Below, piece after piece: positions 1-34,856 of a stretch of 64,000 bases of DNA. Each line of letters begins with the position of its first letter. Position 1 is the first letter of the stretch. A program made the position numbers and the translations under genes. The notes beneath the pieces were generated by a model. It made no database searches. It had not been told where the DNA came from and worked only from the letters and a program-made list of their open reading frames with translations. The DNA is from an uncultured Erysipelotrichaceae bacterium (lineage in GTDB: Bacteria > Bacillota_I > Bacilli_A > RF39 > UBA660): the NCBI GenBank assembly GCA_902791625.1, contig CADAWN010000001.1, forward strand, positions 35,333 to 99,332. Direction: 5' to 3'.

Positions 1-1463
1 GATAAAGTTGTTAATACATTTTCATTATTTTCATCAATATTATCAAGAGTCTGTTTCATATGGCTCCAACCATTAGTATCAGTAATATTTGAACCATTTG
101 CCACAATATTTCTAGCAAGAGTTGGTAAAATAATTCTTGTATCTATTTTTGACAATAATCTATATTCTCCCTATGGTACATCATTATCTACTAATAAATT
201 CTAATACTCTTCTCTTGGAGTATTATAAACTTCTACAAAAATATCATCATATAAATTTAACTCTGTTCTGTTAGCAATATTAATTCTTCTTGCCTTAGTA
301 ACAGGTTTATTATCAACAGCAGTTAAAAAACCATCATAATATACTGGTTTCCAATTTATACTATTAATAGAATACTTATTTCTTCCAAATTCTTTTGTTG
401 CACCAGTATCATCTACATAGTAAACTTTTTCTTGACTTTGGTTCTACTTATCCCAACTTTCAACTGTTAAAATATAAGTATAGTTATAATTTGTTAATAC
501 ACTACTTTCATCAATAATAGCTGGTTTTTGATTATTAATATAAATAAACTATATTATATCTTTTGGATTAGTTGAGGCTGGCTATAAAGCATAATATTTT
601 AAATTATTATCATAATAAGTATTTGAACTTTGCGCCGCGGCTTCAAGATTTTCATATAAGTAGGCATTGATATATTGTAAATCTGACATAGGAACATAGA
701 TATAATCTCCAGTTATAGTAACTTCATTTGTTAATAATTTAGTACTATCATTTCCTTTTTCATTCCAAAAAATATCATTTTTGCCAGCTAAATCATCTCC
801 ATATTCTAATGGACGCTTTTCATTGGTATTAGCATTAGTAATTTTTAAATCACTTCGTGCCTGCGGCACAGCAAGTTCTAATTTATAAGCTTTTATTGAA
901 CCGCCAAAAATACTTAAAGGAATTTTATAAAAACGTTCTTCTCTATACTCTGTAAAATCTCCCCAGTTCCATTCTGGACGATATTTCCAAAAACTATCTT
1001 CTAAAATTATATCCATAAAATCGTGAACTTCATTAACACTATTGTTTAATTCTGGGTCTAATTCTATATCATAACCAGTTCTTGATAATTCATCTATAAA
1101 ACCATCTGAGCAGACAAAATCTTTCATTATGGATTTATAATTTTTATTTTCGGTAATTGTTTTAATATTAAATTCATACCACTACTCTTTAAAGAATAGC
1201 TTTATCTTTTGTTCATTAAATAAATTCTAAATTAATTCATTTTGAACATATTTCCCTTTTTCAGAATCAAAGTATTTAGTTGGCATTGAAAAAGTTACAA
1301 CATGAGTTCCATTTAATAGTTTTTTAAAATGAACTTTAGTAGCTCGACCTAGGTGCGACATATCGTGCGCACCTATAATCTGCTATTTAAAATCTTGTTC
1401 TTGTCCATTTACCAACTTTTGATTCCATATGCTCAATTCATAATTATGCTTTTGAATTGCCAT
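1..1463 (-). CDS. Tail-tip structural protein (Tal / baseplate-hub-like N-terminus). The 3' end runs off the window start. In-frame TAGs are read as sense.
   Basis: ATG at 1461-1463 lies 8 nt after GGAG. The frame matches track ORF 582..1127. Only TAG (cta on the + strand, e.g. at 582, 1182, 1227) interrupts the frame down to position 1. The gene sits directly after the Dit-like gene, the usual Dit-Tal order. Confidence 0.5.
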
Positions 1464-1477
1464 ACGTTTCACTCCTT

Positions 1478-4027
1478 TTAATAATACTAAGGTATATACT
1501 CTATTTTTGCTTTATTAAGCAAATCAACAAAACCCCAATATAATGGCGGATAGTTAATCCACATATAATTATTAGAATTCCACCACCATTCATTTATATC
1601 TACTCCTAAGAAAGAAAAATATCTATCTAACAGCTTTAAAAACTAAATTTCATATTTTTCAACTCTATATTTTTTAAAACTATAATAAATCAACTTAGTT
1701 AACTCTGTCTAATCTAATTTTTCCTCTGAATACGACTATGGAAAATCAGGTTGTTCAAAATCCCCATCCCAAAGTCTAAATTTAATAAGTTCTTCTAATT
1801 TTGATAAATCATCTGTATCAGTTTGTTTTTCTTCAACAAGTCGATTATTTATTTCTTTAAGTTTTGTTGGATTTCTATTAGGATACTAATTTTCAATAAA
1901 ATCTTTTATAGTCTTTTTATATACTTCATTATAATTAGTTCTATTATTTTCATTAGTGCTTCCCCAGAAGAAAGGTCTAGCATCTAACCATCTTTTTCCA
2001 CCCCAAACGTCTTCATCTACTATTGGACTTATATCTATTAAAGACCAACCAGGTGGTAACTAAAACCAATGTCCTTTTTCAATATTATCAGTAAAACTAA
2101 TTTTTTCTTTATTAACTTTATAGAAATTATGCTGATTTAAAGGATTAACAATATTATCTTCTTCCCATTTTAATTCTCTTTCATTATACAACATTCTACT
2201 TTCAGAGTCAAGTATTAAGGATACAGAGTCGTTTATTTGAGATTCCATATTTTTATCGCAACCACAATCTATATTTAATATTTTATCGAAATTATTATTG
2301 TTAATATCTAGATAATCAAAAGTACAATACTATGGCAAATGAGTAATGTTAAAATTAAATTCACCATAATTTAAATCATTAGTTTGTCTAATATATTCCT
2401 ATGGATTATTTAAAAAATCATAAACAAACTCTTGATACTCACTATCATTTTTAAATATCTTTTTATCAGCATCTTCAATTGTATCATTATAATCTTTATA
2501 TCTATCTAAAATAGCTTCTTTTAATGTTTTCCAATATAATTCATTTCTTTCATCATCGGTAATACACTAATCTCTAAGTTCTTCATATCTTTCAGCATAT
2601 TGCTCACCTTGTAAATGATTAAGGAAATGAGTATTATCAGACATTAGTAAGTTTGATTGTTTATAAAATAAACGAATAAAATAACCAAGTTTTTTCTATG
2701 GTACTGGCTCGGCTATATAGCAATGCCGCGGCGCAGAGTAACCTAAATCAGTATATATTGTAGAATCTTTATGGTTATCTTTAATTAAGTTTATTAAATA
2801 TTTCTAAATTTCTGGGTCACCATTAATATCCATCTTAAAATCTTGTTGTTTTAATTGCCCTAAAACTTCCTATTGTTTACTTTCATCTAAATTGTCTAAG
2901 TGCAATTTAGTAGCTAATTTATCATCAGTTAAAGACTAAAGTTGCTCTGATAAATAATTACTAATTTTAAAGTAATGGGTTCCATATTTATATTGTTCTT
3001 CATCTTCTAATCTAAAAGTACGTAGACCAATCCAATCAACAGCCTAATCAATTGTTAATCTCTAAACATTATATCTACTTATTCTAAAAGTATAATTTGT
3101 ATTACCTCTAAAAGTATTAATTAGATTACTAAGATAAAGTTTAAAATCAATTGGTATATCACCAGGATTATAAATTAAAATTCTATTACCAATAGCAAAA
3201 TTCTTTTTACTTGGGCCTATATCCATATTATAATACTAGGCTTTATTGTATTGCGGCATATAAATTAGTTCCTAATCATAATCAAGAGTTGGAGTAGTTA
3301 ATAACTTTGCCGCGGTTTGCCAACGTGGAATATTATCCCAATAATTTCTTACATCAATTATAGTTTTAGTTCCATTTGGAGTATTAAAAAATAATTCTCC
3401 ATTCTAAACCTATTCTATTGTTGGATAGCCGCCCTTCCAAGGGGTTTCCATATTGTTAATAGTATTATAATGTTCTTTAATAGTTTTATTTAGCGGCGGC
3501 ACTGGGTTATTAATAGCATATGTATCTTCACTTGGTTTAATAATTGATTCTGGCGGAGTACATTTATAATAATCTGCCGCGCGCACTATATATTTATTAA
3601 AACAAAAAGCATAAGGATGATACATAACAAAATCAAAGTCACATTCACCTTTATAAACTCTTTGATTAGTTTCTTTATTTAAAAAACACACATAGTTAAA
3701 AGCAGGGGCACGACTTAATTTTGCACGATAAACTTTATATGGTTCTTCATCAAAAACTAAATCTTTTAATTTATCAGTTGCGAATATTTGACGAATTTTT
3801 CTTATTGTATATTCATCAAGATTATCAAAGGCTGTTTTTACTGATATTGTTCTGCTATTATATGTTTGTCCAAAATAATATTTTCCATTTCCACCTGGGA
3901 CATCCACCGAGTAATCCGTAGGCTCTGGTAATAAATTTTTATTAAATCTATCGCCAGAGGAAACTACGGTAAGGTGGAGGTCCTTAATATGAATGTTACC
4001 AAAGCGAAATCCTTTAAAATCACTCAT
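1478..4027 (-). CDS. Distal tail protein (Dit-like N-terminal domain) with a long C-terminal extension, about 849 codons, many sense TAGs
   Basis: Track ORFs 3410..4027 and 2060..2248 share one frame. I translated 2249-2745 and 3236-3410 by hand and saw only TAG interruptions. The true stop is TAA at 1478-1480. The N-terminus (MSDFKGFRFGNIHIKDLHLTVV..) resembles the siphophage Dit family, and the gene follows the TMP. Confidence 0.6.
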
Positions 4028-4048
4028 ATCTAAAACCTCCTTTTTATC

Positions 4049-7000
4049 TTATCGTTTCTTTAAAATTACATTGGAGCCAGTATATTTTGCGGCTTCAACT
4101 ATACGTTGTTCTACTTTATTCATTGCTTCATCGAGATCATAATCGTTTGCTATTGAATCAACATGAACATCAATTTGAATTGTTGTATCACCTATTGTTG
4201 TCGTAGGAAGTTGTTCTTGATTAACTGGTTGTGAAAGTATTGGTAGGTCTGCAAGTATACGTGCAGCCTCACCTATGCGGCGGGTATCTTCAGCACTTAA
4301 GAACGCTTCAGGACGAGAACGAGAGCCGTCAACCCAAGCAGGACCAGTAAAGTTTACAAGACCACCTTCTGCGAAAGCTAGGTGATTTTTAAGATATTTA
4401 TTTCGATTAATTGAATCAGTTGGTGAATTTACTTTTGGGGCATTGTCATTTATATATTTTTCAGCATCTTCTGGACTTCTAGTCATTTTTTCAACTATCC
4501 ACTTATTATCTTTTAAAAGTAATACTCCATGAACCCAATTATCAGCTTTTGTTCCTTTCTATGATTCAGGAACATATAATGTGTCACTAACCTAAGTATA
4601 TGCATTACTATAATTTGAAGTATTATGTCTTCTTAATTCTTCTGCACTAGTAAAAACTTTATACTAACCATTTCTTTCTCCTACTACAATATCTGGTTTA
4701 ATTTTAACTTCTTTATTTTGAGACGCCGCTGCTGCAGCATAATTAGAATAAGTTCCACCATCGGGAGTTTTATAAGTAGGTTGGGTAGTAGTATTACTTG
4801 AAGTACTATTAAGTTTTGTATTATTCATATGTCTACTAAGTTCTTCCATAGAGGTATAGGTACTTCCATCTGGTCCCTTATAAATCTAAGTAACAGTCTG
4901 CTATGGCTTACTCAATGCTTCTTTATATTTCGCAGCAATATCATCAAATGCTTTCTTAGATTCATTAGCAGCATCAAGGGCAGCCTATAAAGCTTCTTTC
5001 TATTTAGCAACTGCATCAACAGCATCTGCTAAAGCTTCTTTTGCTTTTTTAATTGCTTCTTTATATTCATTACCTGCTTCTTCTAAAGATTTACTAGCTA
5101 ATTCAGTAATACCTTCAGAGGTTGTTCTAACTATTTCTTCAGTTTTATCTGCAACATCTTTTAAATTCTTTTCAGAATTTTGAATACTTCTTAATACTGT
5201 ATCATCAACAGAGGCAACATATTCAGTCTTCTTTTTAAATAATTCTTTCCAATCCTCTTTTTCTTTAAGAAGCTTTTCGTCGCTCATTTTCTCCATATCG
5301 GCGACATTTTCTTTCCACCAGTTAACTAATTCATCACTAGTCTAAATTTTCTAAAGAGCTTCTGTTGCTTCTTTCATCAATGCAACATCATCAATTAATG
5401 TTTCTTGATAAGTTATTTCTAATTCTCTCTATTCTTTTTGTAATTCATAGAATTCTCTTAATTTTTCAATAATATCATCAACAGCACTATCTAAAATTGA
5501 TGTTCTATCATCTTGTACTTCTTTTTCTAAAGACTTAACTTCTACTGCATTGCCACGAGACGTATCACGACGTAATAAAGCTAATTTTCTTTCTTTATTC
5601 TCTAAATCATTCCAACTTCTTTCCTAGTCTCTTAATTTTCTTTGTTTATCAATATTTTTCTATAAAGCATTTAAATACTAATCATCAGCTTCATTCATTG
5701 CTTCATATTTAGTTCTTAAATCATCAATTTGCTTTTGATATTTTTCTCTTAAAACTTCAATCATTTTATCTTGAAGTTCTACATATCCATCCAAAGCTTG
5801 TCTCTGATGCTCTATAAATTCTTCATTTAACTATTTAACTTTATCATCATTATCCCATATTTTTGTTAAATATTCATTAGCTTTTTGTCCCTAAGTTTCA
5901 ATCCATTTTTTCAATGCTTCGGGCATTTTTGCTTTTTGCAAAGCATTCATATTAATTTTAGTACCAGTTTTTTCATCAAATACTAAATAATCGGCAAGAT
6001 TAAATTTCATTTGCCCACTATCTTCAAAGCTTTTGATTAACTTAGCAACATCATTATTATAAACTCTACCAATATTGTTATATGCAGTACGATAAACCTA
6101 ATTTTGTGCTTGAAGTTGAGCTTTTTGGTCTAATAATCCTTGTCCATATACCGCAAAATTTCTCTTTGCAGCATCTATTGTACTAGCTTTTTCTAAGTCC
6201 TTTTTGGCTCTTTCAGTTTGTTTTGTTAAGAAGTCAAGTGCGGTATTATAATTATACATACCATCAAGAGAACTTTTCCAATTAGTACCTTCTATTGTTG
6301 CTTTAAGCTCTTTTTGTTTTTCAGCAACAGTTTCAATTGCTTTTGCTAGAGATTTTTGAGCATCTGCTACTGCTCTAGTTTTGTCTTGCCAGTCTTTATA
6401 AGCTTTATCTCTTTCTTTTTTAAAATCTTCAAGAGTTTTTGTATATGTTTTATAAACTTGGTCTATTTTATTTTCGGCGCCTTTAGCCATATTAGCTAAA
6501 GATTGAATATAATCTTTATTATCTAAACTTTTTTGTAATTCTGCTCGTTGAGTTTGAATTTGTTTTAATCCAGCATTTAAATCATTTAAAGTACCAGAAT
6601 TTATTAAAGCAGTACCATTATCTTTCCAATCTATATCATACTGTGCTGATATATCTTTCCAATCTGCATTATTACGTAAAGCATTCTATTTTGCATATTC
6701 TTTGGTTAACTATTTCTATATTCTATAATTTTCTTGTTCTCCTTGACACTAATTAATAATACTTCGAATTAAGGATTCTTTTTGGTTTAATTGTTCAATA
6801 CCATTTTTAATTTGAGCTTCGATTTCTTTTGTTATTTCACTTTCATTAGTGGCTTGTTTTTTTACATCTTCATTTAATGCTTCAACATTGACCTAATAAT
6901 TTCCTTTTTCATCTGTATAAATATAGTCAGCGGGGTCAAGTTTTAATTCTTTTATTGCATCTTCAATTTTATCTTTATCAAGATAGTCAATAAAACCATT

Positions 7001-10000
7001 AGTAATATTTGAATTAATCGTATCTATTGCTGTTTTATAATTAGTAATTATTTTATTATATTTTTCTTTTATTTCTCCTTCTATTTTAGTTAAGGCACTT
7101 GTACTTAATACAGAAAAATCCCCTAAATTAGAATTTTCTAATTCATTCAAATAATTATTTACAGTCTTTTTTGCTGCTTCTTCTCCAATCTTTCCATCAT
7201 CAATAGCACTCTAGAATAATTGCATTAAAGTGTCTCTAGCTTCATTTTTTGTCATACCATCAAGCTATGATGGATCAAACTATAATAATTTATTTTGTAA
7301 TTCTGGAGTTAAATTAAAACTTTTTATTGTTTTTACAAAACCTTCATATACTTTTCCTAAATCGCCACTTTCTCCAAATTTATTTATTAAATTCTAAAAA
7401 ATTTGTCCTTGTGACTCTATAACTTCAATAGGAAGATTTTTAAAGGTTTTTGAGTTTGTTAAATATAACTTATTTAATAATTCCTCATACTATTTTACTT
7501 CTTCTATTGGAAAAGTTGCATTTAAAGTAAAATCAGTTACACCTAATTTTTTTAATTCTTCAATTTTATTTTTAAAATCTTCTATGTTGTCTTTTGAATA
7601 TTTCTTCTAATAAGTTTCTAATGCTTCATTCGATTTTCTTTCTTTTTCAGTTTGTCCCTCATTAGCCAATTCTTTATAAACATTAGATTTATATAAAGCT
7701 TCAAATTTTTCATTCAAGAATTTTTCTAATCTATCATAATCATTTTCTTCTTCATATTTATCATATTCTTCTTTAGTAACTCCAGCTTCCTCTAAAATAT
7801 TTTTTGTATTAGTACTTAAATTCTTCCAACTAGTAAGCCCCCCAATAAACTGCGCCCAATCTCCTATCCAAGCCTTACTAAAAGCACCAGTTTCTCCATT
7901 ATAATACTTTTCTCCATAATCAGCATCAAAAAGAACTCTATTTAATTTGTTTTTTTCAGAAGAACCTTCATAATGCTAAGTATCTGCTTGTTGCATTATT
8001 CTTTCTGCACGTATTCTTAATTGAGTATCACTTAACTACTTATTCTTTTCTAAACTTTCATTATTTTTTCGTAATTCTGCTAATACAGTTTCATAAGTAT
8101 CTCTATCCTCATTATGAGAATTACTCATATAACTAGCTTCAAAATCTTGTAATGTTGTATGAATCTACTATAATGTTTCTTCAGAAGCTTCATTCTTTCT
8201 AGCTAAATCTTCAACAGATTTTTTAAAATCTTCAATATTAGAACTATTTACATTTGCAATATCTATACTTAAATTTTTCTAATCGCTAGAAGATAAACTT
8301 AAAGAATTTTTTAAATCTGAATAATATTTATTTTTTATATCAAGTTCAGATTTTTTATTTACTAAAGTATTATTATAGAACTACTCTTGTAATGCTGCGG
8401 CACTCTACTATTTTTCTAATTCGGTTAAAGTCTTTTTTCTCTATTCTAATAACTAATTATTTAATTTTATTTTTCCTGTCTCTTCATCGTAAGCGGCAAT
8501 TAAAGAAGGATAATTCTCCTTCAAATTGCTAACTAAATCGCTATATTTCTTCTATTCATCCTCGGTTAAAACAACTTTATTTTTTAATTCATCATACTAT
8601 TTCTTTATATTTTCTAAATCTTTTATTGTATTTTGAGTACTTCTAGCTTCACTCTATTTCTGCTCCAATTTAGAAGTAGATTCATCCAAAGCTTTTTGAG
8701 CATTTTTTACTTGCTATTCGATAGTTTTATTTAACTCTTTTGCAGCATTTGTTTTGATAAAATTAGTTATTCCAGCTATAAAAGCAGAACCAAGAGTCGC
8801 CCCAACAGCAAGTATTGCACCATGTGGGCCGCCCATCTAGATTCCTGCCATAATATTTGGAATCAAAGAGGTACCTATTGATGCAATAACAGCACCACTA
8901 GTTGTATTAGATGCTAAACCAGATGTAATTCCAGCGGCTATACTTGTAGATATTGCAGTGCCTATAGCTTGCCCTTTTAATATGCCTTTTGCTCTAGCGT
9001 CCTCGTAAGCACGATCTATATCTTCTTCAGATGCATTTTCATTATTATTTTTATATTCTGTTGCAAAATCAGTTTTACTTTTAGGTGCAAACTTAGAACT
9101 TATAAAATTAGAACCCATAGTAAGAGTTCCACTAATAGCTTTTCTACCAAGAGTCAACCATGTTGCACCAAGTGCTACTAATCCACCAGTTGACAAATCA
9201 TTTAATTTTTCTAAAAAACCTTTAAAATTATCAAGAGTATCTTTATAAAAATCACTAGTTAATAAGTTAGTCTTAAACTATTCCCAAGTATTAGAAATCT
9301 ATTTCATTCTATATTCAACAGTATCCTAATACTTAGCAAACTGTTGACTACTTCTACCTGCTGAATTCTACGCAACATCAACCAATTGCATTGTTCTCTC
9401 ATAGTTTTCCATAAGAGCGATAAATCTAGATTGTTGTCTTGAACCTGCAGCAATGGTTGCAATATATCTCTAACTATTTCTATCAAGAGTCTTCCATTTG
9501 CCAGATAATTCAAGTAATACATCATCCATATTTCTGAACTAGCCAGCGGTATCTTTTAATGAAACTCCAACACTTTTCAGTGCTTTATCAACTTTATTAT
9601 AATCTAAATCATCAAATTCACTATCAGCAGTTCCAGCAACATTATTTTTCAATTCTGTAAATCTTGCAAGAATTGTCTTCATTGCAGTACCAAGATTTTT
9701 CGGAGCTTCCTGTGTTGCTTCTACCATAGTTGCAAGCATTGCGGTAGTTTTTTCAAAACTCATACCTGCAGAGTTTGCGATTGCGGCAGTAGCACTCATA
9801 GCTTCAGAAAGACCTTGTACGTCAACAGCAGCATGTGCTGCAACTTCTGCATATACATCAGTTACGTGTGCACCTTCGCTCATATCCATATGGAAAGCAC
9901 GAAGTGCCGCGGTCATTTGGGATGTAGCGTCCTTAAAATCCAATCCTGCTAATGTAGCAAGTTTCATTGTCTCTTCAGTTAACTACATAACCTCATTAGT

Positions 10001-11467
10001 TTTTAAACCTTGTTGATAATAAAGTGCAGATGCTTCAACAACACTCTTAGTACTTTGTCCGAGTTTATTAGCCATAGCAGCATATTGGTCATATTGTGCC
10101 CACATATCTTTAACACTATAGCTTGTAACCATTGCAATAGAACCAAAGGCTTTATCTAAATCTTTAATATCATTAAAAGTAGACTTAACTACATTTCTTA
10201 ATGCTCTCCAAGAAGTAGTAACAGAAAGTACTTGTCTTGCTCCTTGACCAATCCTGTTAAATCCACTTTCTATAGATTGCTAAACGCTTACATATCTCTA
10301 GGCTTCTGCTATAATCTATTTTCTTTTATTAATTTCAGAATTACCAGCTTGTTCTGCCGCAGTTCTTTCTTTATTTATATTATCGGTTGTTGTTTTTAAC
10401 TGGTCTCCGTATTTTTTTTCAGCATCAGCTTGCTAATTAATAAGTTCTATTCTTCTCTATTCTCCACTCTAATATGCCTAAACATCTGTATCATTAACAA
10501 GACTATTACTAATATTATTAATTGCATCTCTACGTCTAGTAAAATCTCCCTTCTTATTTGGGTCTATACCACCTTTTCCACTCTTTCCACCAGGCGTATT
10601 TAAACCTGCGTTAGCAATTTTTTCCATGTCCTAAGCAAACTATTCCTAAACCTCATCTGCATTAGTAACTTCAAGTTTATACTTTCTCATTACTTCTGTA
10701 AATGCCTTTAGAGCATCTTCAGCAGAACCAGTTTTCTCCATAGTTTTCTAAAGAACTTGCTAATATTCTTTTTGTGCCGCAGTCTATGCTGCAGCAGTAT
10801 CTATTACTCCTTTTTTGGCTAAATTTTCTCTATTGGCATCTCTACCTTTTTTCGTAGCAACTCCAAACTCAAAGTTACCTGTACCAGTAGTTGCTAAAAC
10901 TTTCTATCCTGCATCAGAACCTATTGCAGCTTTACTTATATCCTACTATAATGCTTTGGCTTTTGCTACTGTAATATCATCAACTATTTTCTTATAAGCC
11001 TCGGCATTGCCAAGTGCTTTCTTTAGCTAATTAGTTTCTTCTTTATCAAGTTTTAGTTTACTAGCTTTTGCAGTAATCTAACTAGTAGCAATTTTTCTTA
11101 ATTCATCCTATTTTTTAACTAACTAATCTAACTAAGAAGCATATTTTTTTATTTCGGCATTTTGTTTAGCATAATTATTAGCATCAGCAAAACTTGTAGC
11201 TTTTACATTTAAAATGCCATAGGTCTTTTCAAGTTGATTAACTGTTCTTGTAAAATCTCTTATATCAGCAGCGTTATTTAATCCTTTACTTAACTATGCT
11301 AACATTTGAGTTGTTAATTTTTCTGCCTTTTCAAGTTCTTTGTCATAACCTAAAAGCATTTTATCTCCGATACCGCCCTTCGCAGCCTCATCACGAATTT
11401 TCTTAAATGAGGCAAGTATGCCATTGGCATCAAATTCGCCTCGTATTTTTATTGTTTTATCTGCCAA
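4049..11467 (-). CDS. Tail tape measure protein, about 2472 codons with TAG read as sense
   Basis: Seven track ORFs (4049..4486, 4664..4849, 5000..5296, 6098..6490, 6893..7150, 8837..9196, 9539..9967) share one frame. The start is TTG at 11467 after GAGGTGAG, with an in-frame TGA just upstream. There is a TP901-type TMP core (KLATLAGLDFKDATSQMTAALRAF..AMKTILARF), long coiled-coil stretches and a C-terminal GGLVNFTGPAWVDG motif. Confidence 0.85.
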
Positions 11468-11481
11468 ATTAACTCACCTCT

Positions 11482-13317: not shown

Positions 13318-13344
13318 TCCTCTCACCTTCTCTTTCAAAAACTA

Positions 13345-13368
13345 AAGGCGACATTAATCTGCCGCCTT
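13345..13368 (-). terminator. Intrinsic-terminator-like hairpin after the 13367..14263 gene
   Basis: On the minus strand, AAGGCG-N12-CGCCTT is followed by a T-rich run. The hairpin overlaps the TAA stop. Confidence 0.45.
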
Positions 13369-14263: not shown

Positions 14264-14315
14264 AATAATCACCACCTATTCTCTACAATAAAGTAAATAT
14301 TACTGTTCTTATCTC

Positions 14316-17666: not shown

Positions 17667-17682
17667 TCTTTACGCCTCCTTA

Positions 17683-24790: not shown

Positions 24791-24814
24791 TATCTTTGCC
24801 TCCCTAAAATTATA

Positions 24815-25294
24815 TTATTCCTCTTCCATCTAATGTTTACGAGAAATTCCAATTAAAATATCTTTTCCAGTTAAATCCTTTAAAAATTTACATTTTTCAG
24901 TATTAACAATTTCTTTTTCAATTGCATATATAATCAAATTATCAACCTAAGTCCTAGGAACTGTTGTCATTATTTTTATAAACTCTTCCATTGGAGTTGT
25001 AGTTAATAATTCTGTCATTTTCTTTTCATCAAAAGCGATAATATTTTTTGCCTCTGTTGCATCTGCGTCTTCTATACCTAAATCTATTTTATCCTGTAAG
25101 TCAGGGATATATAAAATACCAGAATAAATTATATTTTTAAATCCAGTATCCCACATTAATTCTCTTACAGTATCAAAAGGAATTCCAAAAGTCTATCCTC
25201 TTGTTTTCCAAGTTCTATTAACACCATATTCTGGCTTTCTAACTGTTACTGTATTGTTTACCATACTAGTAATCTTAACCATTCTATTCTCCAT
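24815..25294 (-). CDS. Hypothetical head-module protein, 159 codons
   Basis: ATG at 25292-25294 follows AAAGGAGGAA. I hand-checked the codons on both flanks of track ORF 24947..25156 (24815-24949 and 25154-25294). TAGs lie at 24830, 24947 and 25193, and the stop is TAA at 24815. Confidence 0.65.
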
Positions 25295-25385: not shown

Positions 25386-26531
25386 TTATGGATTTGGCTT
25401 ATAACCGTTTGTAGTCTTACCAGTCCAGTTTGCTACAAATTTAGTAGGATACTGTGTAGGATAAGCTTGTGTATCCTGAAGGTCTGTATTTACATATACA
25501 CCCCAATCATTATTGGTAAGAATAGCTACACCAACTTTCTTATAAGCTTCTACTTCCATTGTTCTATCTCTACCCTTGAAATCATCAACAATAGTATCGC
25601 CTTCGAAAACAATCTTAACTGGCTTACTCTTACCATTAGGGAATACATAAGCAAGAGCAGGATTTACTACAGTAGTAGTATTGTTATCGTCAGTAAATGA
25701 CTGTGGAATTTCAACAATAGGGTTGCCACGGAAAGTCTTAATTCTACCATACTGAGCAATCTCTTCAATGTTTCTAGGATTATATACAGGTGTTGCAACA
25801 CCAGTAGCACCAGAATTTCTTGCCCAAGCCATTGGCATACCAATTGCCTCAGGTCCCATAGCCTGTACGAATTCAGGAGCAGCGAAAATTGTAACTCCGC
25901 CATCACCATAAGTACCAGCAATGGTTACAAGTTGCTGCATACCATCTGGATCAAAGCCGGCACTAATAACCTTATTTCTTGCAGGACGATCATCAGCATT
26001 AACTGCGGCAATAAGAGCTTGCTGAATTAAACCATAAATTGCCTCAACCATACCCTCAAGAAGAATTTCAGCAACTTCTGCAACATCCTCTTGACCACAA
26101 ATATATCTTTCAAAGTCAATAATACCAGTACCACCAATTGCGCTAGCACTTACTTCAAAAGTATCGCTATCAAGTCTGAAAGCCTCATATACACCAGAAG
26201 GTGCAACTGCTGTTACAAACTGCTTAGCTCTACGTCTACCTCTCTTAACTACAAACTGTGCTTTTTCATTATTTGCAACCTGCTTAATTTCAGCAAACAT
26301 TGACATAAATTCTTCTACAGTCTTAGGAAGAACTTCATCAAAAGCCTCTTGCATAATTTCAAAAATATCTAATCTATTTCTACGATAAGAATTAAAATCA
26401 TAAGCAAGCTCATGTAAAGCATTAGAGGTTGCCTTCTTTATATCTTCAACTTGATATTTAGTAGGATTTGGAGTTGTTCCTCTGAATGAATGAACAATTA
26501 AATCCTTAATCATTTGCTTTTTATTCTCCAT
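25386..26531 (-). CDS. Major capsid protein (HK97-fold type), 381 aa, TAG-free
   Basis: Intact track ORF with AAAGGAGGT upstream. It follows the scaffold gene. The sequence has MCP character (..AVAPSGVYEAFRLD..GGVTIFAAPEFVQAMG..). Its GC content is elevated and its codon usage looks optimised. Confidence 0.75.
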   Translation of the reverse strand: MENKKQMIKDLIVHSFRGTTPNPTKYQVEDIKKATSNALHELAYDFNSYRRNRLDIFEIMQEAFDEVLPKTVEEFMSMFAEIKQVANNEKAQFVVKRGRRRAKQFVTAVAPSGVYEAFRLDSDTFEVSASAIGGTGIIDFERYICGQEDVAEVAEILLEGMVEAIYGLIQQALIAAVNADDRPARNKVISAGFDPDGMQQLVTIAGTYGDGGVTIFAAPEFVQAMGPEAIGMPMAWARNSGATGVATPVYNPRNIEEIAQYGRIKTFRGNPIVEIPQSFTDDNNTTTVVNPALAYVFPNGKSKPVKIVFEGDTIVDDFKGRDRTMEVEAYKKVGVAILTNNDWGVYVNTDLQDTQAYPTQYPTKFVANWTGKTTNGYKPNP

Positions 26532-26626
26532 TCTATCTCAACCTCCTTTTATTATGCTGTAGGCTTATTGATAAATTGAATCTTAAATGACAGAGTATTG
26601 TCTGCATTATAATAAGGTTCAACTAT

Positions 26627-27205
26627 CTAAGCGTATACATTACCAATTGCATCTGCAACAGGAGCACCAATTACTAATTTACCATTAGATGCATTAGTTA
26701 CATAAGCATAAACTGTAGTACCTGCTGCAATATCTTCTTGAACTTTCTTCCATAATTGTACAGAAGGAGTGTCATCTTCTTCAGCGTCTGCCTCAAAATA
26801 TGCCTCATCCCAGGCAACTGTGTTAGTACAAATTCTCATACCAGGATCCATATATCCAATTTTTGGTAAGAACTCTCCAGTAATCATAGCAAAATTTCTA
26901 CGACCAGGAGTATACTGATTATAAATCTTTTCTGTTGAATAATTAATTCCCATTGGGAAGCCCTTATCACTTAAAGCTTTTGTAGGAACTGTAGCAGTCT
27001 TATTAGCCTTATCAACCATTAAGAACGCTCCAACTTCTGCATAAATTTTGTTATCATTTGCTTCAGCGGGGGTCATAGGGAAATGAGCAGCGAACTTCTC
27101 TGGGTCAAGCTTGCACTGTGCTTCAACTTGTCCAGCACGATAAGCCCAAGACTGGCTCATTTCAAGTTGTCCAAAACCTTTGCAATCAAAAAATTGAATA
27201 GCCAT
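26627..27205 (-). CDS. Capsid-associated protein (decoration or auxiliary role), 192 aa, TAG-free
   Basis: Intact track ORF between scaffold and MCP. Its start overlaps the scaffold stop (TAATG). Confidence 0.45.
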   Translation of the reverse strand: MAIQFFDCKGFGQLEMSQSWAYRAGQVEAQCKLDPEKFAAHFPMTPAEANDNKIYAEVGAFLMVDKANKTATVPTKALSDKGFPMGINYSTEKIYNQYTPGRRNFAMITGEFLPKIGYMDPGMRICTNTVAWDEAYFEADAEEDDTPSVQLWKKVQEDIAAGTTVYAYVTNASNGKLVIGAPVADAIGNVYA

Positions 27206-28035
27206 TACTTATTACCTCCTAATGTTTTATCAATATAATCCTCCAACGCAGAGTTGCCTTTTTCAACATCATCTGCATTTCCTGTGTAAATAAGAGTCTG
27301 GCTCTGTTCTTGTTTACTAAAGATTGTTGGAGTATTTTTTACAGCAGCAACACATACTTCTTTCTCAAAATCTTCTACTGAATAATTAGCAACATCATTC
27401 TCTAAAGTAGAATATTTTTCTGAAGAAATGTATTCTGAATATTTTTCGAGAATAGATTTCTTTTGCTCTGTTTCGATATTAGCCTTAAATTGAGCAAGTT
27501 CTTCCTTCTCTTTATTTAAGTCAGAATTTAAAGTTTCAAGGCTAGCTTTTTCAGCCTTAATAGCTTCTAATTCTTTCTTAGTTTCTTCTAAACTATTATT
27601 TAATGTTTCAATTTCAGTTACTTTTTCTTCAACTGTCTTATTAGCTTCTGTTAATTGAGAATTAATTTCCTCTTTTTCTGCTGTTAAGTTCTCAATTGCT
27701 TTTACATTAGCATCATAAGTTTCTTTAACTTCGCTTAAGTTATTATTAATTGCCTTTAATGCTTCAAGTGCTAACATTTCATCTTTTGTTACATCAGTAA
27801 TTTCAACTTCCATCTTTTCACCAACAGTAACACTTTCATCAGCATTTACAGTATAATAAGCTCTAATATACTTATCTTCATCTACACTAGCGGCAACTGC
27901 ATAATCAGCATAAACATCCATTAAATAATACTCAAATTTCCATCCGCCTTCTTCATTGAAATTAGGATTAAGAGCAGAAGCAATCTTACGAGCTTTATCA
28001 TTATCAGATAATCTAAATAAGAGTTCCTTTTCCAT
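27205..28035 (-). CDS. Scaffolding protein, 276 aa, TAG-free
   Basis: Intact track ORF with a long acidic coiled-coil centre (..LTAEKEEINSQLTEANKTVEEKVTEIETLNNSLEETKKELEAIKAEK..). It lies between the portal/protease-like genes and the MCP. Confidence 0.7.
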   Translation of the reverse strand: MEKELLFRLSDNDKARKIASALNPNFNEEGGWKFEYYLMDVYADYAVAASVDEDKYIRAYYTVNADESVTVGEKMEVEITDVTKDEMLALEALKAINNNLSEVKETYDANVKAIENLTAEKEEINSQLTEANKTVEEKVTEIETLNNSLEETKKELEAIKAEKASLETLNSDLNKEKEELAQFKANIETEQKKSILEKYSEYISSEKYSTLENDVANYSVEDFEKEVCVAAVKNTPTIFSKQEQSQTLIYTGNADDVEKGNSALEDYIDKTLGGNK

Positions 28036-28098
28036 GTGCTTATCTTCCTCCTTTTTATTGTTATTTGAATCAATATTCTTTATGTAAGAAATTAACTC

Positions 28099-28830
28099 CT
28101 AAACATCCTTTGCTAGACTATAGAACGCCGCACCTTCGAAGCATGGCTCAACTGCTGTACCAAGTGCTTGAAGTCCAAATAAACTACCATCAGTAAAATG
28201 GAAATAAGGTAAACCATCAGCTTCCCATATTCTCCATTCACCTTTATATGTATAAGGATTAATTTCCATTGATTGTGAAGAACCAGGTATTAACTTTGCC
28301 TCTTGATAAAGAGAAGTATATAAAAGTACATCTGCACAAGCGTATGTTCTTATAACACCATCATTATCCATGTGGTCTTCCCAAGCAAAGTTAGGTTCTG
28401 CCATTACAATACCATAAATGCGGCCGTCAGAATTTTTCTCACCATGATCTTCGAAATCGACATCATCTTGATTAAAAATACCTTTAATTGGTGCATATGG
28501 TAAAGATGCTATTAATTTATTTGCAAAATCCTCTGATATATAAGTACGATTTCTATTTAAACCTCTATAGAAAATTCGTACTCTGCACTTGGATTTGCTA
28601 TCATCGAATTTCTCAACATTACCATATAAACTAACATCGAACTTCAGATTTACTTCCTTACCTAAAACCGCATCTTTACCGTATGTTTGAGGAATATACG
28701 CTAAGTTTGTAGTCGCGGCACCGGGTAAGGAGATGGGTAATGGAGTTCCAATGCCAGTAATTTCATATGGAGCAGTTCCAGTTCCAGTACTAGTAATCTA
28801 TAAAGAATTACTTGTTATTAACTCTCCCAT
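28099..28830 (-). CDS. Prohead-protease-like or head-maturation protein, 243 codons
   Basis: ATG at 28828-28830 follows GGAGGAGGG. The frame matches track ORF 28099..28404, with one TAG near the N-terminus. The gene lies between portal and scaffold. The family assignment rests on position plus weak resemblance. Confidence 0.4.
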
Positions 28831-30374
28831 TATTTACCCTCCTCCTTCTCTTCTTTATTTTCTGGCTCTTCTTTTTCTTTATTTTCTGCTTGCTATTCTT
28901 TTTCTTTATCTCTACCTTCTGAACTTTGCCCCTTAGTATCGCCCATTGGTTCTCCAGAAGCTTTTCCAGACTATGTATATGAGGATTGTAAAGGTTTAAG
29001 TATTTCATCAAGTTCAAGCAAATCATTTTCAAGAGCCTTAAGATTAGCTAAATTAGTCTAATCTAATCCAGTAACAGCAATAGGAGTAAGGAAGCTATAT
29101 CCAAATGATGCCTATTTTTCTGCTCTTTCGCTATATTCTTTAGCATTATATCTTGTAACTGGAAGAATAATTAATCTAAACTTAACTTTATCATTAGCAA
29201 ATTTATAATTTAATAAAGTTGTAAAGAAGTGAGCAAATCTATCTCCTAATACCATCATCATAGATAAATCGTTATTTGTTGAATATTGTAAACCAGCTTC
29301 AGTTGTAGAGAAAAAGAACTCTTTAGATAAACCAGCAGACTCATAAATTAAATTTAATACATTATTAACTTCTGTCTTTTGGTCATCTTTACTACTTAAA
29401 TCTAATAAATCAATTTTTCCATAAGTTGTAATAACATCAACATCTTCATTATTTTTAAGCATTTCACAAGTTCCCCTGTGCATTTCATATGCTTCATCTG
29501 GTTCAAAAATTAACTCTCCGTTATTATCAATAGGCATTATCTAAGCAATAATTCTTTTTAAAGCCTATTTATTTCTTTGCTTATCTAATTCCTTATAATC
29601 ATCTAAATCAACAAGTAAAGGAATTAAGTCTAAGAAAAATGGTCTTTCTTCAAAAAATGAAAAATAAATTCCCATTTCCGCAGGTAAGAAAATCCACTTA
29701 CTTTTTTTATCTTTTGTATTTTTATTATTTTTATATTTCTTATACTCCTTTTGGATGAGTTTAGGATAAGTTCTTAATATTTCTGTTCTTAGTGTATTGT
29801 CTCTAATACTATCAAAAAACTCTAAATTAAATTCAACTATATCAATATCATCCTAGTTTTTAAACCTTGTTCTACAATAATTAAAAGGCAAATCCTAAAT
29901 TACAACCTTATCTCCATTATCGTGTAATAAGCCATAATAAGCTCCCGTTACTAAAATATCTTTAGCAAAAATAGCACATTTTCTCTAAATTTGGAAAGTA
30001 GTACAAAAATCAGTAGCATCATAATAAGCTTTTTTAATAGCTTTATCCGTAATCTATACGGGTTTAGTTCGTCCAGTGTCGTGTTTAAGATAAGGAACAA
30101 CTATCCAAGCATAAGATAAAAAAGTTGCATAGTGAATAATGGCTCTTTTATAAATACCACTAATTGTAAAAAAGTATTTAGATAATTCAGCTCTTTCAGT
30201 ACTTGTTCCACCTTCAACTATTTGCATTATATCTTCTTTTTTATATTTTTTAAACTTAACTTTCTAATCTTTTTTATCGCTTTTAATATATGCACTATCA
30301 GAGGTTGCTATCATTTCACTTATAGCTTTTTTAAACTACGTTACTCTATTATCTGTCGCAGGTGTGCTATCCAT
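28830..30374 (-). CDS. Portal protein, about 514 codons, TAG-containing
   Basis: ATG is at 30372-30374, with an alternative TTG at 30383 nearer to GGAGGTGA. The frame matches track ORF 29112..29537. The stop TAA at 28830 overlaps the next ATG. Size and position directly after TerL fit a portal, as does the acidic C-terminal tail. Confidence 0.65.
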
Positions 30375-30385: not shown

Positions 30386-32182
30386 TTACTCACCTCCACG
30401 TCTAAAGAAAACTAACTATCTTTTTAGTCCTCTATTTTTCTTCTTAGCGTTTTCTTGTCTTTCATAATCGCAAACTCTAGATACACCCATTTCAAAAGCT
30501 GAAAATTTATCTTTTGTCATACGAGTATTTATTTGTTCAACAGCAAGTTTATTACTTGTTGCAGTTTGTTTAATCCTTAAGTTAACAATTTCATTAAATA
30601 AAGAGGTTGTTAATTCGTGTGGAAGTAAACGAGCAGCACGTTCCTCAATAGACATTTTTTTACTTAATGCTTTACTTAATAGTTTTTCTCTAGCCTTCTT
30701 TTCAGAAATCAAAAAATTGATACAACCACTATTGATTTTTGAAATTAAATCTGAGTGGAAACGACTGTTATCATCTGGCGTAGCTTTAACACCATATAAA
30801 ATTTTTGCACAATTTTTAGGCTAGATAGCTTTATATTCATCTCTATTTGAAAAGCCGTAAGCAGGAAAGATTTCTCCTGTTCTTGGGTCCTATGTAGGTT
30901 TAATCATCTCGTCAGCTAAACCAACACCTAAACCATTTATATCTATTACACATTCTTTAGGATTAAAATTCTTAATTAGCCTTTTTAAATCCGCAGCCTA
31001 ATAGGTAAACTATTTTTCTGTTTCAGTTAATCCTAAAACATAAATATTTACCAAATTTATTCGATAAGGCTCTCCTGGAAATACTTTTAAAACTGTTACA
31101 ACAGTCTAACAAAGTCGTCTCGCAACATCCACTGCTAATAAGTAAAAAGCTTTAGAATCTTCTCTAATTTTTTCCTTGACTTCTGGGTTATTAAGTTTTC
31201 TATGAATTTCCAATTTACTATATTTAATCCAAGCTTCTTCTGTAGAACCTACAAATCTACTCATATACTCTTTTGCAAAGCCAGCTTCACTAAAAGTTGA
31301 AGACATTCTCATTTCATTCAAGAAGTCTTTAGAAAGTAACCCAGTCTTTACTGGAATACGATAATCAAAGCCCCAAACAAAAACGTTATGTGGCTAAAGT
31401 ATTGAAAGTTCAAATAATTCAACAGTTTTATCATAAGCAAAAGTGTTACGTTCTGCGGCAGAAGAAATCCACATTTGAACTTGTTGCGGCTCATATGGAT
31501 TTTTATCCTAGTTTGCCATTGGCCTATCAACGTTCAATAGCGGAAGAATAATCTCGGATATATCATCTGGTAAATGGTCCCTGAACTCGTCAAGGATGCC
31601 CGCAGTAGCACGATTACCACGCGTTGAGTTCAAAGGTGACATGATGTCCATTATAGAGCCATTTCTAAAGGTTAATTTAACATAATCAGGACCAAAGTTA
31701 CCATCACCAACAATCTCTTCTTTAAGCAGCGGCATTAAATCCCATAACTAGTGAATCTTTTGATTAGCAATTTTAGAACCCTATGCTTTACCAGGAGCGC
31801 ACTAGAAGACGTGACTTCCTGGTCTAAATATACAGATTAAATATAAAGCTAATATACAAATAAAAGACTTACCTGCGGCACGAGGTGCAATTGTCAATAT
31901 ACGCCCATGTCGTAAACAAACTCTTAAAAATAAAATCTAAAAAAACTTTAGTTTAAATTTAGATGTAGATGGTGTAATTTGTTTTAAATATAAATCTGGA
32001 TATGTACTCCATAACCAACAGTAATGTTTATATAAATCAAAATTCCTATCAATTCTATCTTTTGTTATAACAGCACCTTTTTCTAATTCTATACCATCTT
32101 TAACAAAAGTCTATGCTGTTCTAGCAAGAGTGTAATGAATTGTATTTAATATAGCGGAGGGCTATTCAATATTTATATCCAT
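30386..32182 (-). CDS. terL: Terminase large subunit, about 598 codons, TAG-containing
   Basis: ATG at 32180-32182 follows ACGGAGGT. Track ORFs 30416..30712, 31106..31321 and 31508..31735 share its frame. There is a Walker A-like APRAAGKS motif, a GILDEFRD (Walker B-like) motif and a nuclease-half-like C-terminus. The stop is TAA at 30386. Confidence 0.8.
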
Positions 32183-32196: not shown

Positions 32197-33126
32197 TTAA
32201 ATTTCTACTTCAAATTCATCATCAACTAATTTTTCTCCGCCTTGCTCTTTAAGATATTCTCTAAACTCTTTTTCGTTGAAGGTTTCTCCACTAAGTTTGG
32301 CACTAGTTTTTAAATTTTCAATTCTTGCTTCAATTTCTTCAGGAATATTAGTATCGCTAACATATAAATACTAATTCCACAATTTTATATCTTTTATTGA
32401 AAAATCAACTTCATCTCTTACAACATCATCATAATATTCATTAACCCAACCTTTTTTCTCTAAGTATGCGAAAATTTCACCAACAGAACTAAATTCATTA
32501 GCATCCTAAATAATTTTAGGAGTAAAATTAGCAAGTTTTGATAACTAATCATAAGATTTTAATTCTTTTGAAAAATCAGAACCTTCTCTAATTTTTTGTT
32601 CAATCAAAAGTGAAATCTTACATAGTTTTAATGCCTGGTCTTCATTTAATGCTCCAACAATATTCTAACTATCTAACATACCTTTATGAAGATTTTCAAG
32701 GTACTCTAATTCTTCATCATCGTAACTCTATCCCCATTTCATAGCTAATTTTCTTTTTTTATTCTCTCTTACACTAGGCATTGCATCAGTAACTCTTTGT
32801 TCCTCTTGAAGCTGTAAATAAACCTCATTATACATTTTCCAATCAAGAGTATCATAAGGAGCAGAACGAAAAATACTTGCATAAATACCAAAAGCATCTT
32901 TGCCCTATCCCTAATAAATTTTTTCCCATTGCTCTGGAACAAAAGGAATATCAGCCCATTGACATATTTTATCAACAGTATTCCACTTATTCTCAGATTC
33001 TTCAATCATTTTTGCTAAGCAGTCGCGGCATATTGGTAAACTTCCATTATGAATAGGAGAATTAACTGCAATATAATTGGCAGTTGTTTTTTCTTGCTAG
33101 CATTTTAGACATTTTTTTAATGCCAT
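32197..33126 (-). CDS. Putative small terminase / packaging accessory protein with an N-terminal zinc ribbon, 309 codons
   Basis: ATG at 33124-33126 follows AGAGGTGA. Manual translation gives MALKKCLKC*QEKT..LPICRDCLAKMIEESE.., open to TAA at 32197 with about 9 TAGs. The gene lies immediately upstream of terL. Confidence 0.4.
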
Positions 33127-33158
33127 TTATATCACCTCTTCGATTATTCTTATAAAAC

Positions 33159-33255
33159 ACTTTGTGCCGCGACTGCATAAAATTTTGAATATGTCTAGAC
33201 AAAAACTATGCCTATGTTAATCACTATTCAAAACTTTTTGTAGTCGCGGCACAAA
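33159..33255. repeat. Long GC-clamped inverted repeat between the 33275..33583 gene and the terS-like gene
   Basis: TTTGTGCCGCGACTGCATAAAATTTTGAATA (33161-33191) is nearly the reverse complement of TATTCAAAACTTTTTGTAGTCGCGGCACAAA (33225-33255). The loop is about 33 bp. Confidence 0.8.
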
Positions 33256-33274
33256 ATAAGTAATAATTTAATTT

Positions 33275-33583
33275 TTATTCTCCAATTTTTTCTTCTTTTG
33301 TTTTTATCTCGCTTTTTTCTCTAAACTTTTTTCTTAATTCAGTATTAAAATTCTCTCCTCTCATTGCAAACGACTAAGCAGCAGTTAAAAATTTTTTCTA
33401 TTCTCTTTTAGGAAGTTCAGTATATTTTGTAACCATATCGGTCAAATACTCTTCAAAGTCATCTTGTTCTTCTACTTTTAATAGTTTGCCAAAAGTAAGT
33501 AAATCAGTTATCTAGAAATACTATAAATAACTAATGAACTATAAAGCATCTTTAGCTACTTTATCTTTTCTTTTAAATTTCAT
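33275..33583 (-). CDS. Hypothetical small late protein, 102 codons, TAG-containing
   Basis: ATG at 33581-33583 follows GGAGGATT. Manual translation is open to TAA at 33275 with 5 TAGs. Confidence 0.45.
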
Positions 33584-33668
33584 TTTTAATCCTCCATTAA
33601 TGTAAGCTTCTTATGTAGGTGGATTTTCTAATAATTTTGTAGTCGCGGCACCGAGTCCACAATAAGCT

Positions 33669-34856
33669 TTACTTATTATTCTACCTTAGCTCTCGATCGC
33701 ATTGCTTACATCTACCTGTAAGCCCGTCTAAAGCTTTTGCCTTTCTAACAAAATTCCTAGGGTCTCTCAACAAAACCTTTCCACATCTGCTACATTTCTT
33801 CCAAGCTTTTTCATAATCTTTACTTAAAAATTCATCATAATTTAATTCAACTGCATTACTAATCAATTCTAAGCTTTTGTTCCAAATTGTACTAATATAA
33901 TTATCTTTATGGTCAATACCTAATTCTTTATTAAGTTTTTCTCTAATTTCTTTAATCTAAAGTTTCTATTTCTTTCCTTCAACAATTAATTTCTACTAAG
34001 GACTTAAATTAGCTTTTTCAATATAAAAATCAAGTGTCCAAAGTATATTGTGAATTAAACTATCTGGCTAATTTCTAACCTAATCTTCTAAATCTAAATA
34101 AAACTAAATTAAAAAATATAAATGGTCAATATTCCTAAAATCTAAATAAGGTTTTCCACTCTAAATAATTTCTTCTTCGTTTTCAACTGCTTTAGCAACC
34201 CTCTCATTATCATAATAAGGATTCTCAAATTTAAAATCATTAATAGAATTTTTTAATCCTCTTGGTAAAATAGGGAAATTAACCTATTTGTCTGTACTAT
34301 TTCCATGAAATTCTGCCTTGTTCTTTTTTGCCCTAAAGGTAGGGTAAAAAGCGTCAAGCAAATCATACTATTGCTAATACTATTCAATTAACTAGTGTCT
34401 TAAATAATAAAGCTAAGTCTAGTTTAAAGTTGGGGTATCACTTGTCTTTTCTATTTTTCCTGTATTCTCATCATAAACCCTTTTTAATCTATCAATGGTT
34501 TCCCATAGTTGCTAAAATTCTGATAAATGTTCAACTTTATCTCTATAATCCTTAATATCGGGTTTAACTTTTTTATAAATATTCTTTTCTTTTAAGAAAA
34601 TATTTTCGTCAAAAGTTGGACTTTCAAGTAAAGCTTCTAAACTAACAGTTCTATTTTTTTGGAAAGAACTAAACTTTGCTTTAATCTAAACTTCTTTTCT
34701 ATCAACTATGGAGGTGCCATCTTCGTCCTTTCCATAGAGTACATAATTGGTAACGGTTTCTAATTCGGTTTTTGTTAGTGTAGATAAATCAATTGATTTA
34801 ATTGCTTCAAGTCTATCTTTTGCTGAAACTATATTAAAGTCTAGTTTAAACTTCAA
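33669..34856 (-). CDS. Putative late transcription regulator (sigma-70 region-4-like HTH plus C-terminal CxxC..CxxC zinc ribbon), 395 codons, about 18 TAGs
   Basis: TTG start at 34854-34856 lies 5 nt after GGAGGTGAG. The frame matches track ORF 33681..33866. The segment ANLSP**KLIVEGKK*KL*IKEIREKLNKELGIDHKDNYISTIWNKSLELIS looks like an HTH, followed by CSRCGK..CKQCD. It is the first gene of the late operon. Confidence 0.4.

Follow-up and report, generated by a model that had tools for sequence, protein, structure and literature searches.

Gene content of the late block

We examined a 64,000-nucleotide (nt) stretch (contig CADAWN010000001.1, positions 35,333 to 99,332; here, the window) of an assembly deposited as an uncultured Erysipelotrichaceae bacterium, the first 35 kb of which hold a block of phage virion genes interrupted by the amber codon TAG. 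The window has a GC content of 29.9%, and strand bias in its first 35 kb indicates genes on the minus strand. An earlier sequence-only reading, made without database searches, had delimited this block as 1-34856 and proposed that TAG is a sense codon within it. TAG is read as sense across that span, but position 1 is no boundary of the block, which is simply cut there by the window edge. When TAG is read as sense, the block is, as judged from its predicted genes, a complete siphovirus late operon, with the following content.

1-1463, minus strand: Tal/fibre-position tail protein, N-terminal 487 codons of an open reading frame (ORF) that runs off the window; 8 TAG inside the window
1478-4027, minus strand: Dit, 849 amino acids (aa), 19 TAG, TAA stop; Pfam PF05709 Sipho_tail, 1.6e-13
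4049-11467, minus strand: tape measure, 2,472 codons, 71 TAG; phrog_4211, 1.4e-47 (best tape-measure family); precomputed PF10145 PhageMin_Tail
11482-13317, minus strand: ORF for a 611-aa protein without assigned function, 16 TAG
13367-14299, minus strand: fifth, short YomU-tube paralog, about 310 codons, 14 TAG, start provisional; phrog_2729, 3.3e-10, residues 17-298
14344-15684, minus strand: YomU-tube paralog, 446 aa, 14 TAG; phrog_2729, 1.8e-22; precomputed PF27173 YomU_Tube
15681-17666, minus strand: YomU-tube paralog, about 661 aa, GTG start, 15 TAG, TGA stop; precomputed Pfam
17683-19641, minus strand: YomU-tube paralog, about 652 aa, TTG start, 12 TAG; precomputed Pfam
19734-22082, minus strand: major tail tube (YomU_Tube), 782 aa, 0 TAG; PHROG and precomputed Pfam
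22098-22847, minus strand: YomV-like virion protein, 249 aa, 8 TAG; phrog_4051, PF27211 faint
22834-23349, minus strand: YomW-like virion protein, 171 aa, 4 TAG; phrog_6123, PF27256 YomW
23339-25294, minus strand: four small genes in head-tail connector position, of 241 aa (3 TAG), 90 aa (0), 160 aa (6) and 159 aa (3)
25386-26531, minus strand: major capsid (YonB family), 381 aa, 0 TAG; PF27364 YonB and tblastn
26552-27205, minus strand: head protein (YonC position), 217 aa, 1 TAG
27205-28830, minus strand: YonD-like head protein, 541 aa, 2 TAG; PF27290 YonD_N, phrog_3313
28830-30374, minus strand: portal, 514 aa, 12 TAG; phrog_2739, 1.3e-63, residues 34-497
30386-32182, minus strand: large terminase (TerL, YonF-like), 598 aa, 14 TAG; full-length alignment to annotated terminases
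32197-33126, minus strand: YonG-like protein, 309 aa, 8 TAG; PF27269 YonG_N, phrog_3314
33275-33583, minus strand: small gene, 102 aa, 5 TAG
33669-34856, minus strand: first gene of the block, 395 aa, TTG start, 18 TAG (4.6 per 100 codons); phrog_5767, 7e-18, a family labeled "sigma factor"

The Yon and Yom Pfam families, which comprise virion proteins of Bacillus phage SPbeta, are precomputed calls on identical genes of a public contig (L002; contigs other than the window are cited by our own labels). Our Pfam search returned nothing for TerL, the portal, or the sigma-like protein, which were identified through PHROGs and by alignment with annotated homologs. TerL aligns over its full length, at 23-29% identity, with the terminases of SPbeta-like 2, LIBA2945, BcoS-136, and Sundance, and the capsid gives tblastn matches to phAss-1, EF1, and SPbeta-like phages (Spbetavirus records). 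The 611-aa protein has no Pfam or PHROG match. Order and sizes of the four connector-position genes are as in SPbeta-like 2, BcoS-136, and Sundance. The TTG start of the first gene, at 34856, is preceded by a GGAGGTGA ribosome-binding site, and the apparent gap at 33126-33669 contains the 102-aa gene.

Beyond the left edge, a Logan contig of the same genome (L030, 100% identical to window positions 1-14027), reached through cluster members of Dit, completes the leftmost tail gene as a 1,813-aa protein with 36 TAG codons and continues for at least 8.5 kb, with six more plus-strand genes, five of them containing TAG. No tRNA was found in these 8.5 kb. The 1,813-aa protein has no relative in IMG/VR, and its closest relatives in the protein database are only 58% identical. 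Dit belongs to a large family: its homologs form 292 clusters in the database, and many of these lie on 140-185 kb contigs, among them contigs from cattle and other gut assemblies.

TAG is the only stop codon read as sense

To ask which codon is read as sense, we compared the coverage of 1-34862 (minus strand) by start-to-stop ORFs of at least 100 aa. Coverage is 26.3% under table 11, where the median ORF is 144 aa long, and 97.4% with TAG as sense, where the median is 396 aa. With TGA or TAA as the sense codon instead, coverage is 27.2% and 28.8%, respectively, and reassignment of either codon was rejected because coverage does not gain. On the minus strand of the whole window, the combined length of ORFs of 100 aa or more is 8,030 aa under the standard code. 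It grows to 16,076 aa when TAG is read, with the longest ORF extending from 784 to 2,474 aa, and to 9,289 aa if TGA is read instead. The late block is thus readable only with TAG translated.

The stop codons themselves tell the same story. The block is tiled by 21 large ORFs bounded by TAA or TGA, which together span 11,293 codons; 249 of these are TAG, and neither TAA nor TGA occurs internally. In the two alternative frames of the same DNA, TAA and TGA together occur 580 and 1,579 times, so the long frames free of both cannot be due to chance. Genes of the block end in TAA (18) or TGA (4), and the TGA stops at 15681, 23339, and 24308 and the TAA stops at 1478, 11482, and 17683 lie exactly where the sequence-only reading had put them. 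Its single tape measure frame is likewise intact. Alignments to homologs and profiles continue through TAG in the portal (where the match to phrog_2739 crosses eleven TAG sites), the tape measure, tube, and Dit (Pfam Sipho_tail) proteins, and the capsid module. The sequence-only reading had named three outcomes that would count against it, namely, homolog alignments stopping at TAG, no gain on a table 15 re-call, and in-frame TAA or TGA at a density similar to that of TAG; all three came out in favor of reassignment.

The shredded look under table 11 is the only support for a block that has decayed, as a prophage remnant whose TAGs are true nonsense mutations, or that is an assembly or sequencing artifact. 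Against both stand the 249 TAG codons unaccompanied by a single TAA or TGA, frames that stay open for as many as 2,472 codons, and the same pattern in relatives at 61% and 36% capsid identity. Independent recovery of 100% identical DNA from ENA and Logan assemblies also excludes sequencing error. The asymmetry between stop types already refutes decay or artifact, to which we give practically no weight. For annotation, the consequence is that a standard-code gene caller, as had been predicted, loses about three quarters of a virion gene block of more than 43 kb and shreds the terminase, portal, tape measure, and tail genes. Under table 15, the same region reads as an ordinary SPbeta-type late operon with tightly packed genes. 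The further claim that TAG reading dictates the annotation holds for most late genes but not for the capsid, the major tube, and the 90-aa gene, which have no TAG at all.

TAG columns point to glutamine

To identify the residue encoded by TAG, we aligned the portal, TerL, YonG, YomV, and YomW proteins with homologs from isolates that use the standard code, since metagenome proteins previously translated with table 15 would have made the comparison circular. Across 45 TAG columns, glutamine makes up 15.8% of the aligned residues against a background of 3.5% (4.55-fold; binomial P = 5e-12), and no other residue is enriched more than 1.6-fold. Glutamine is also the best BLOSUM62 candidate, scoring 18.2 compared with 5.5 for lysine and 4.2 for glutamate. 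TerL columns 82 and 395 hold glutamine in all four homologs (SPbeta-like 2, LIBA2945, BcoS-136, and Sundance), and a third TerL column holds it in three of the four. Since glutamine alone is strongly enriched and has the best score, TAG is predicted to stand for glutamine, as in genetic code 15.

Could TAG encode lysine, glutamate, tyrosine, tryptophan, or pyrrolysine instead? Lysine and glutamate are the next-best BLOSUM62 candidates, lysine is the second commonest residue at TAG columns (25 of 190), and ARAGORN labels the CUA tRNA described below as tRNA-Pyl. Over background, however, lysine is enriched only 1.45-fold and glutamate 1.03-fold, the three TerL columns are glutamine in all or all but one of the homologs, and ARAGORN prints "tRNA-Pyl" for any CUA anticodon. 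The tRNA(CUA) of a sister genome (L009) has an ordinary cloverleaf rather than the compact tRNA-Pyl shape: it aligns end to end with the general tRNA model, its D, anticodon, and T arms are all normal, the D arm being of the Gln type, and it has U1-A72 and G73. No pyl genes occur in the gene lists seen. Another residue is therefore very unlikely. In all, we are confident that the late block uses genetic code 15, with TAG translated as glutamine and only TAA or TGA ending its genes.

TAG is concentrated in late genes and avoided in capsid and main tube

TAG occurs at 2.17 per 100 codons in late genes and at 0.51 in early genes of at least 80 aa, most of which have none. TAG-rich late genes use it at 2.6% of codons, compared with 2.2% for CAA and CAG together, and in most late genes over half of the glutamine codons are TAG. 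Usage falls to 0.16% of codons across the capsid, the tube, and two other head genes. The capsid (25386-26531) and tube (19734-22082) genes are slightly more GC-rich than their neighbors. Five YomU tube paralogs (782, ~652, ~661, 446, and ~310 aa) lie in tandem at 13367-22082 (minus strand), and only the first is free of TAG, the others having 12-15 each. In the relative with 61% capsid identity, too, the capsid and main tube ORFs (L024:9971-11149 and 14479-17163) are unbroken and those around them fragmented. The pattern suggests that codons dependent on suppression are selected against in the virion proteins made in greatest amount. It also makes the block a clean case of recoding graded gene by gene, from no TAG in the capsid and main tube to one of the highest densities in the putative late regulator, the sigma-like first gene.

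Two early-region genes do carry internal TAG.

52445-53224, minus strand: DnaD-like protein, 259 aa, 3 TAG; phrog_186, 1.8e-6
61176-62210, minus strand: HNH-type homing endonuclease, 344 aa, 9 TAG; phrog_374, 1.3e-62

The endonuclease has three internal repeats and is embedded among TAG-free early genes. In two further early genes, at 48991-49335 (plus strand) and 56001-56438 (minus strand), the first stop is TAG with an in-frame TAA within 0-1 codons, so that both proteins are barely altered with or without suppression. Being almost free of TAG, the early genes are readable by an unmodified host.

This distribution bears on whether TAG might already be a sense codon of the host, making a phage-driven switch unnecessary. 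Consistent with this, nearly all genes of the window terminate in TAA or TGA. Early genes nearly avoid TAG, however, at 0.5 compared with 2.6 per 100 codons; two of them end in TAG with TAA immediately behind; and the phage lineage has its own CUA tRNA genes. TAG is not known to encode glutamine in any bacterium. A recoded host is accordingly a highly improbable source of the pattern.

A variable tRNA(CUA) locus beyond the window

The sequence-only reading had proposed a search for a tRNA with a CUA anticodon, and the outcome was mixed: a canonical gene in a sister genome, none in the window, and only an aberrant cloverleaf in the searched parts of the genome itself. The window has a single tRNA, the first of a tRNA-rich region that continues past the right end.

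63200-63275, minus strand: tRNA-Arg(ACG), the sole tRNA in the window

No credible CUA tRNA was found within the window by ARAGORN (default and intron modes), at the Rfam gathering threshold, or by a custom scan for cloverleafs with a CUA loop. With ARAGORN thresholds lowered to 85%, six extra calls appeared, including a 94-nt "cta" at 23202-23295; all lie in coding DNA and were regarded as noise. An ENA contig 100% identical to the right end of the window runs on through the tRNA-rich region, where the extension of the same genome (L004:1987-5569) has 9 tRNAs. The sister genome has at least 30, including Ile(UAU), two Gln, two Glu, and three Arg. The phage tRNAs (L004, L006, L007, and L009) form clusters over about 35 kb with small genes interleaved.

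In this sister genome, an IMG/VR sequence about 97% identical, a canonical tRNA(CUA) lies about 33 kb beyond the right end of the window (L009:525-596). It is detected by ARAGORN, scores 63.4 bits against the Rfam tRNA model, shares the loop context C32-U33...A37-C38 with the phage's own tRNA-Gln(UUG), and has its own promoter, TTGACT-N18-TATAAT. This tRNA resembles bacterial tRNA-Gln.

At the syntenic site of the genome itself (L017:1399-1472, about 32.8 kb past the right end), we identified a perfect cloverleaf that is also the minimum-energy fold. Its arms are 7/4/5/5, its anticodon loop is CUCUAAC, and it has U1-A72 and G73; its D loop, ACGAUAGCUA, lacks GG, and its T loop, GGCAGCA, has no T-psi-C. 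A plain hairpin follows the element. This aberrant form is identical in six assemblies. The locus is hypervariable: among close relatives, the syntenic site is occupied by any of four tRNA bodies, which have U1-A72, G73, and the loop CUCUAAC in common and whose anticodon and T stems differ but are fully paired. A second variant body (L023:4835-4911) is recognized by ARAGORN. The fourth (L018:9619-9748) has canonical loops and a 57-nt structured insert inside the anticodon, and ARAGORN calls it in intron mode only. Several assemblies break at or near this locus. No further aberrant copies were present in IMG/VR, and five JGI matches to a degenerate pattern of the element were discarded as one unrelated GC-rich sequence. 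No Rfam match to a ribozyme or group I intron was found beside or inside the CUA tRNA variants.

A suppressor would be dispensable if host near-cognate tRNAs read through TAG at low efficiency, purely throttling expression. The atypical element, which may be inactive, would be compatible with this. Yet even 10% read-through per site would leave no full-length product from the tape measure (71 TAG) or the leftmost tail protein (36), and sister genomes retain intact CUA tRNAs at the same locus. Throttling of this kind is thus exceedingly improbable, and decoding of TAG as glutamine by a dedicated tRNA is preferred.

Several observations weigh against this preferred reading. The element in the genome itself is structurally aberrant, a candidate suppressor by its predicted fold, and neither ARAGORN (at thresholds down to 70%) nor Rfam (E ≤ 10, 111 nt) calls it. 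Release-factor and tRNA-synthetase genes are absent from the Pfam lists of the roughly 115 kb examined, and the suppressor search covered the genome except for about 46-55 kb and a 13-kb stretch seen only in the sister genome. Glutamine at TAG is predicted for this phage from sequence, and the timer role proposed below and the cause of TAG avoidance in capsid and tube are inferred.

Non-canonical structure has been predicted to hide some suppressor tRNAs from detection (Borges et al., bioRxiv 10.1101/2021.08.26.457843), and the locus described here, which is outside the window, may be such a case. That the amber suppressor of this lineage is a structurally aberrant tRNA invisible to standard tRNA finders is possible, though less likely than not. 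Should the aberrant form be functional, it would provide an actual case of the suppressor tRNAs that seem "missing" from recoded phages and would point to rapid suppressor turnover, possibly under pressure from host anticodon nucleases.

Two neighboring genes may relate to RNA repair. One, beyond the right end of the window, is polynucleotide-kinase-like (AAA_33/KTI12 plus HD; L004:1-79), and the other, a Macro-domain gene, directly adjoins the tRNA(CUA) locus in the genomes with the aberrant tRNA (L016/L017/L019-L022).

Promoters and a proposed translational timer

Consensus sigma-70-type promoters number 16 in the window, compared with 0.56 expected, and 14 lie in the early region. The other two are in the late block, one of them intragenic (2183-2211) and the other at its head.

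34877-34905, minus strand: sigma-70-type promoter, TTGACT-N17-TATAAT, 20 nt upstream of the TTG start

Upstream of this promoter, at 34925-35107 (minus strand), the palindrome TAGATCTA occurs twice, about 29 nt apart; further upstream is an intrinsic terminator, GGCGGTCAAGTTTGACCGCC followed by a T run, which closes the preceding gene.

One mechanism consistent with this arrangement begins with a phage CUA tRNA carrying tRNA-Gln features (U1-A72, G73, and the C32/A37/C38 context), transcribed from its own host-type promoter. The tRNA would probably be charged by the host glutamine pathway and would out-compete release factor 1. The one host-type promoter of the block would drive the putative late regulator, and since this gene has 18 TAG codons, late proteins would wait for the suppressor and would not be completed until it accumulates, a translational timer. 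The most abundant virion proteins, capsid and main tube, avoid TAG, presumably since suppression works less well than ordinary decoding. A delay of late or lytic functions until the suppressor is available has been proposed previously for recoded phages (bioRxiv 10.1101/2021.08.26.457843).

Relationship to known recoded and SPbeta-type phages

We predict that the source is a large siphovirus (contigs up to ~163 kb) of gut and rumen assemblies with an SPbeta-type (Yon/Yom) virion module. The YonG, YonD, YonB, YomW, YomV, and YomU families are all present, and the gene order from YonG to Dit is conserved relative to SPbeta-like 2, BcoS-136, Sundance, LIBA2945, and EF1. Among complete phage genomes, phAss-1 gives the best capsid match, at 36% identity, with Enterococcus EF1-type phages next at 32%. 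A megablast search with 8.2 kb gave no nucleotide match to the phage collection. A closer capsid relative (61%) lies on a 167-kb contig of a Clostridia-labeled metagenome-assembled genome, which has the same pattern of shredded ORFs.

Like the phage described here, phAss-1 (GenBank OQ749652, "Caudoviricetes code 15 clade," proposed Phassvirus) is a large gut siphovirus, of ~135 kb, with many tRNAs, TAG in its TerL, portal, tape measure, and tail genes aligned with glutamine, and a capsid gene intact under the standard code. TAG-to-Gln reassignment, with a tRNA-Sup-CTA, has been published for its group, which includes two recoded relatives without a detectable suppressor tRNA (Babkin et al. 2023, PMC10607447). 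Unlike phAss-1, the genome here has a non-canonical CUA tRNA, and assignment to Phassvirus is not warranted given no nucleotide match, 36% capsid identity, and a different order around the capsid.

Stop-recoded gut phages were already known, as the sequence-only reading had remarked (PMC9523058, PMC10607447), and for crAss-like phages the reassignment of TAG to glutamine has been proven by mass spectrometry (Peters et al. 2022, PMC9523058). The code 15 crAss-like phages and the clades of Borges et al. have several features in common with the phage here, namely TAG-to-Gln reassignment, a bias toward late structural genes with standard-code early genes, a suppressor tRNA (a candidate in the genome here), a proposed timer logic, and a recoded homing endonuclease inside the early region, a recoded intron endonuclease in an early gene having been noted by Borges et al. 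(bioRxiv 10.1101/2021.08.26.457843). Unlike the crAss-like phages, ours has an SPbeta-type virion module and a probable Clostridia rather than Bacteroidetes host. It further differs from the crAss-like and Borges systems in that no release factor 2 gene was seen in the parts examined and that its recoding is predicted from the genome. Theta (hepatitis delta virus-like) ribozymes beside phage suppressor tRNAs (Kienbeck et al. 2024, PMC10879173) share the context of a gut phage tRNA-Sup(CUA); here, in contrast, no ribozyme family scored beside the CUA tRNA loci examined.

The Yon/Yom families also occur in SPbeta-like 2 (Staphylococcus), Sundance (Brevibacillus), BcoS-136 (Bacillus), LIBA2945 (Clostridioides), and EF1 (Enterococcus), in the common order YonG, terminase, portal, YonD, capsid, YomW, YomV, tube, tape measure, Dit. 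These phages differ in using the standard code and in having one tube gene rather than five, with protein identities of 15-32%.

TAG-to-Gln recoding of gut phage late genes is thus already established, and with TAG-only interruption, glutamine at TAG columns, and concentration in late genes, what we describe is one more code 15 phage, in the wider phAss-1/EF1/SPbeta-like group. It adds a further Firmicutes-type lineage to such phages. The only potentially new element is the variable, partly non-canonical tRNA(CUA) locus outside the window.

Other features of the early region

Repeated modules occupy both strands of the early region at 36700-49000. A roughly 17-nt motif, TATGAACAATGCGATAG, is found in either orientation, often paired about 35 nt apart, and each module has a TTGACA-N17-TATACT/TATAAT promoter (at least 11 copies), a very small ORF, and a hairpin with TTAGTTAAAAATTTTAACT behind it. 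In organization, the modules resemble early transcription units under operator control. Two paralogous exonuclease-like genes (phrog_20187) lie 3.3 kb apart on the plus strand, at 46826-47440 and 50159-50662, with a 202-nt direct repeat at their 3' ends. In close relatives (L031/L032:6709-8868), a UvrD-type helicase gene contains a LAGLIDADG domain, probably an intein, and several GIY-YIG endonuclease genes lie near it, making this a lineage rich in selfish elements.

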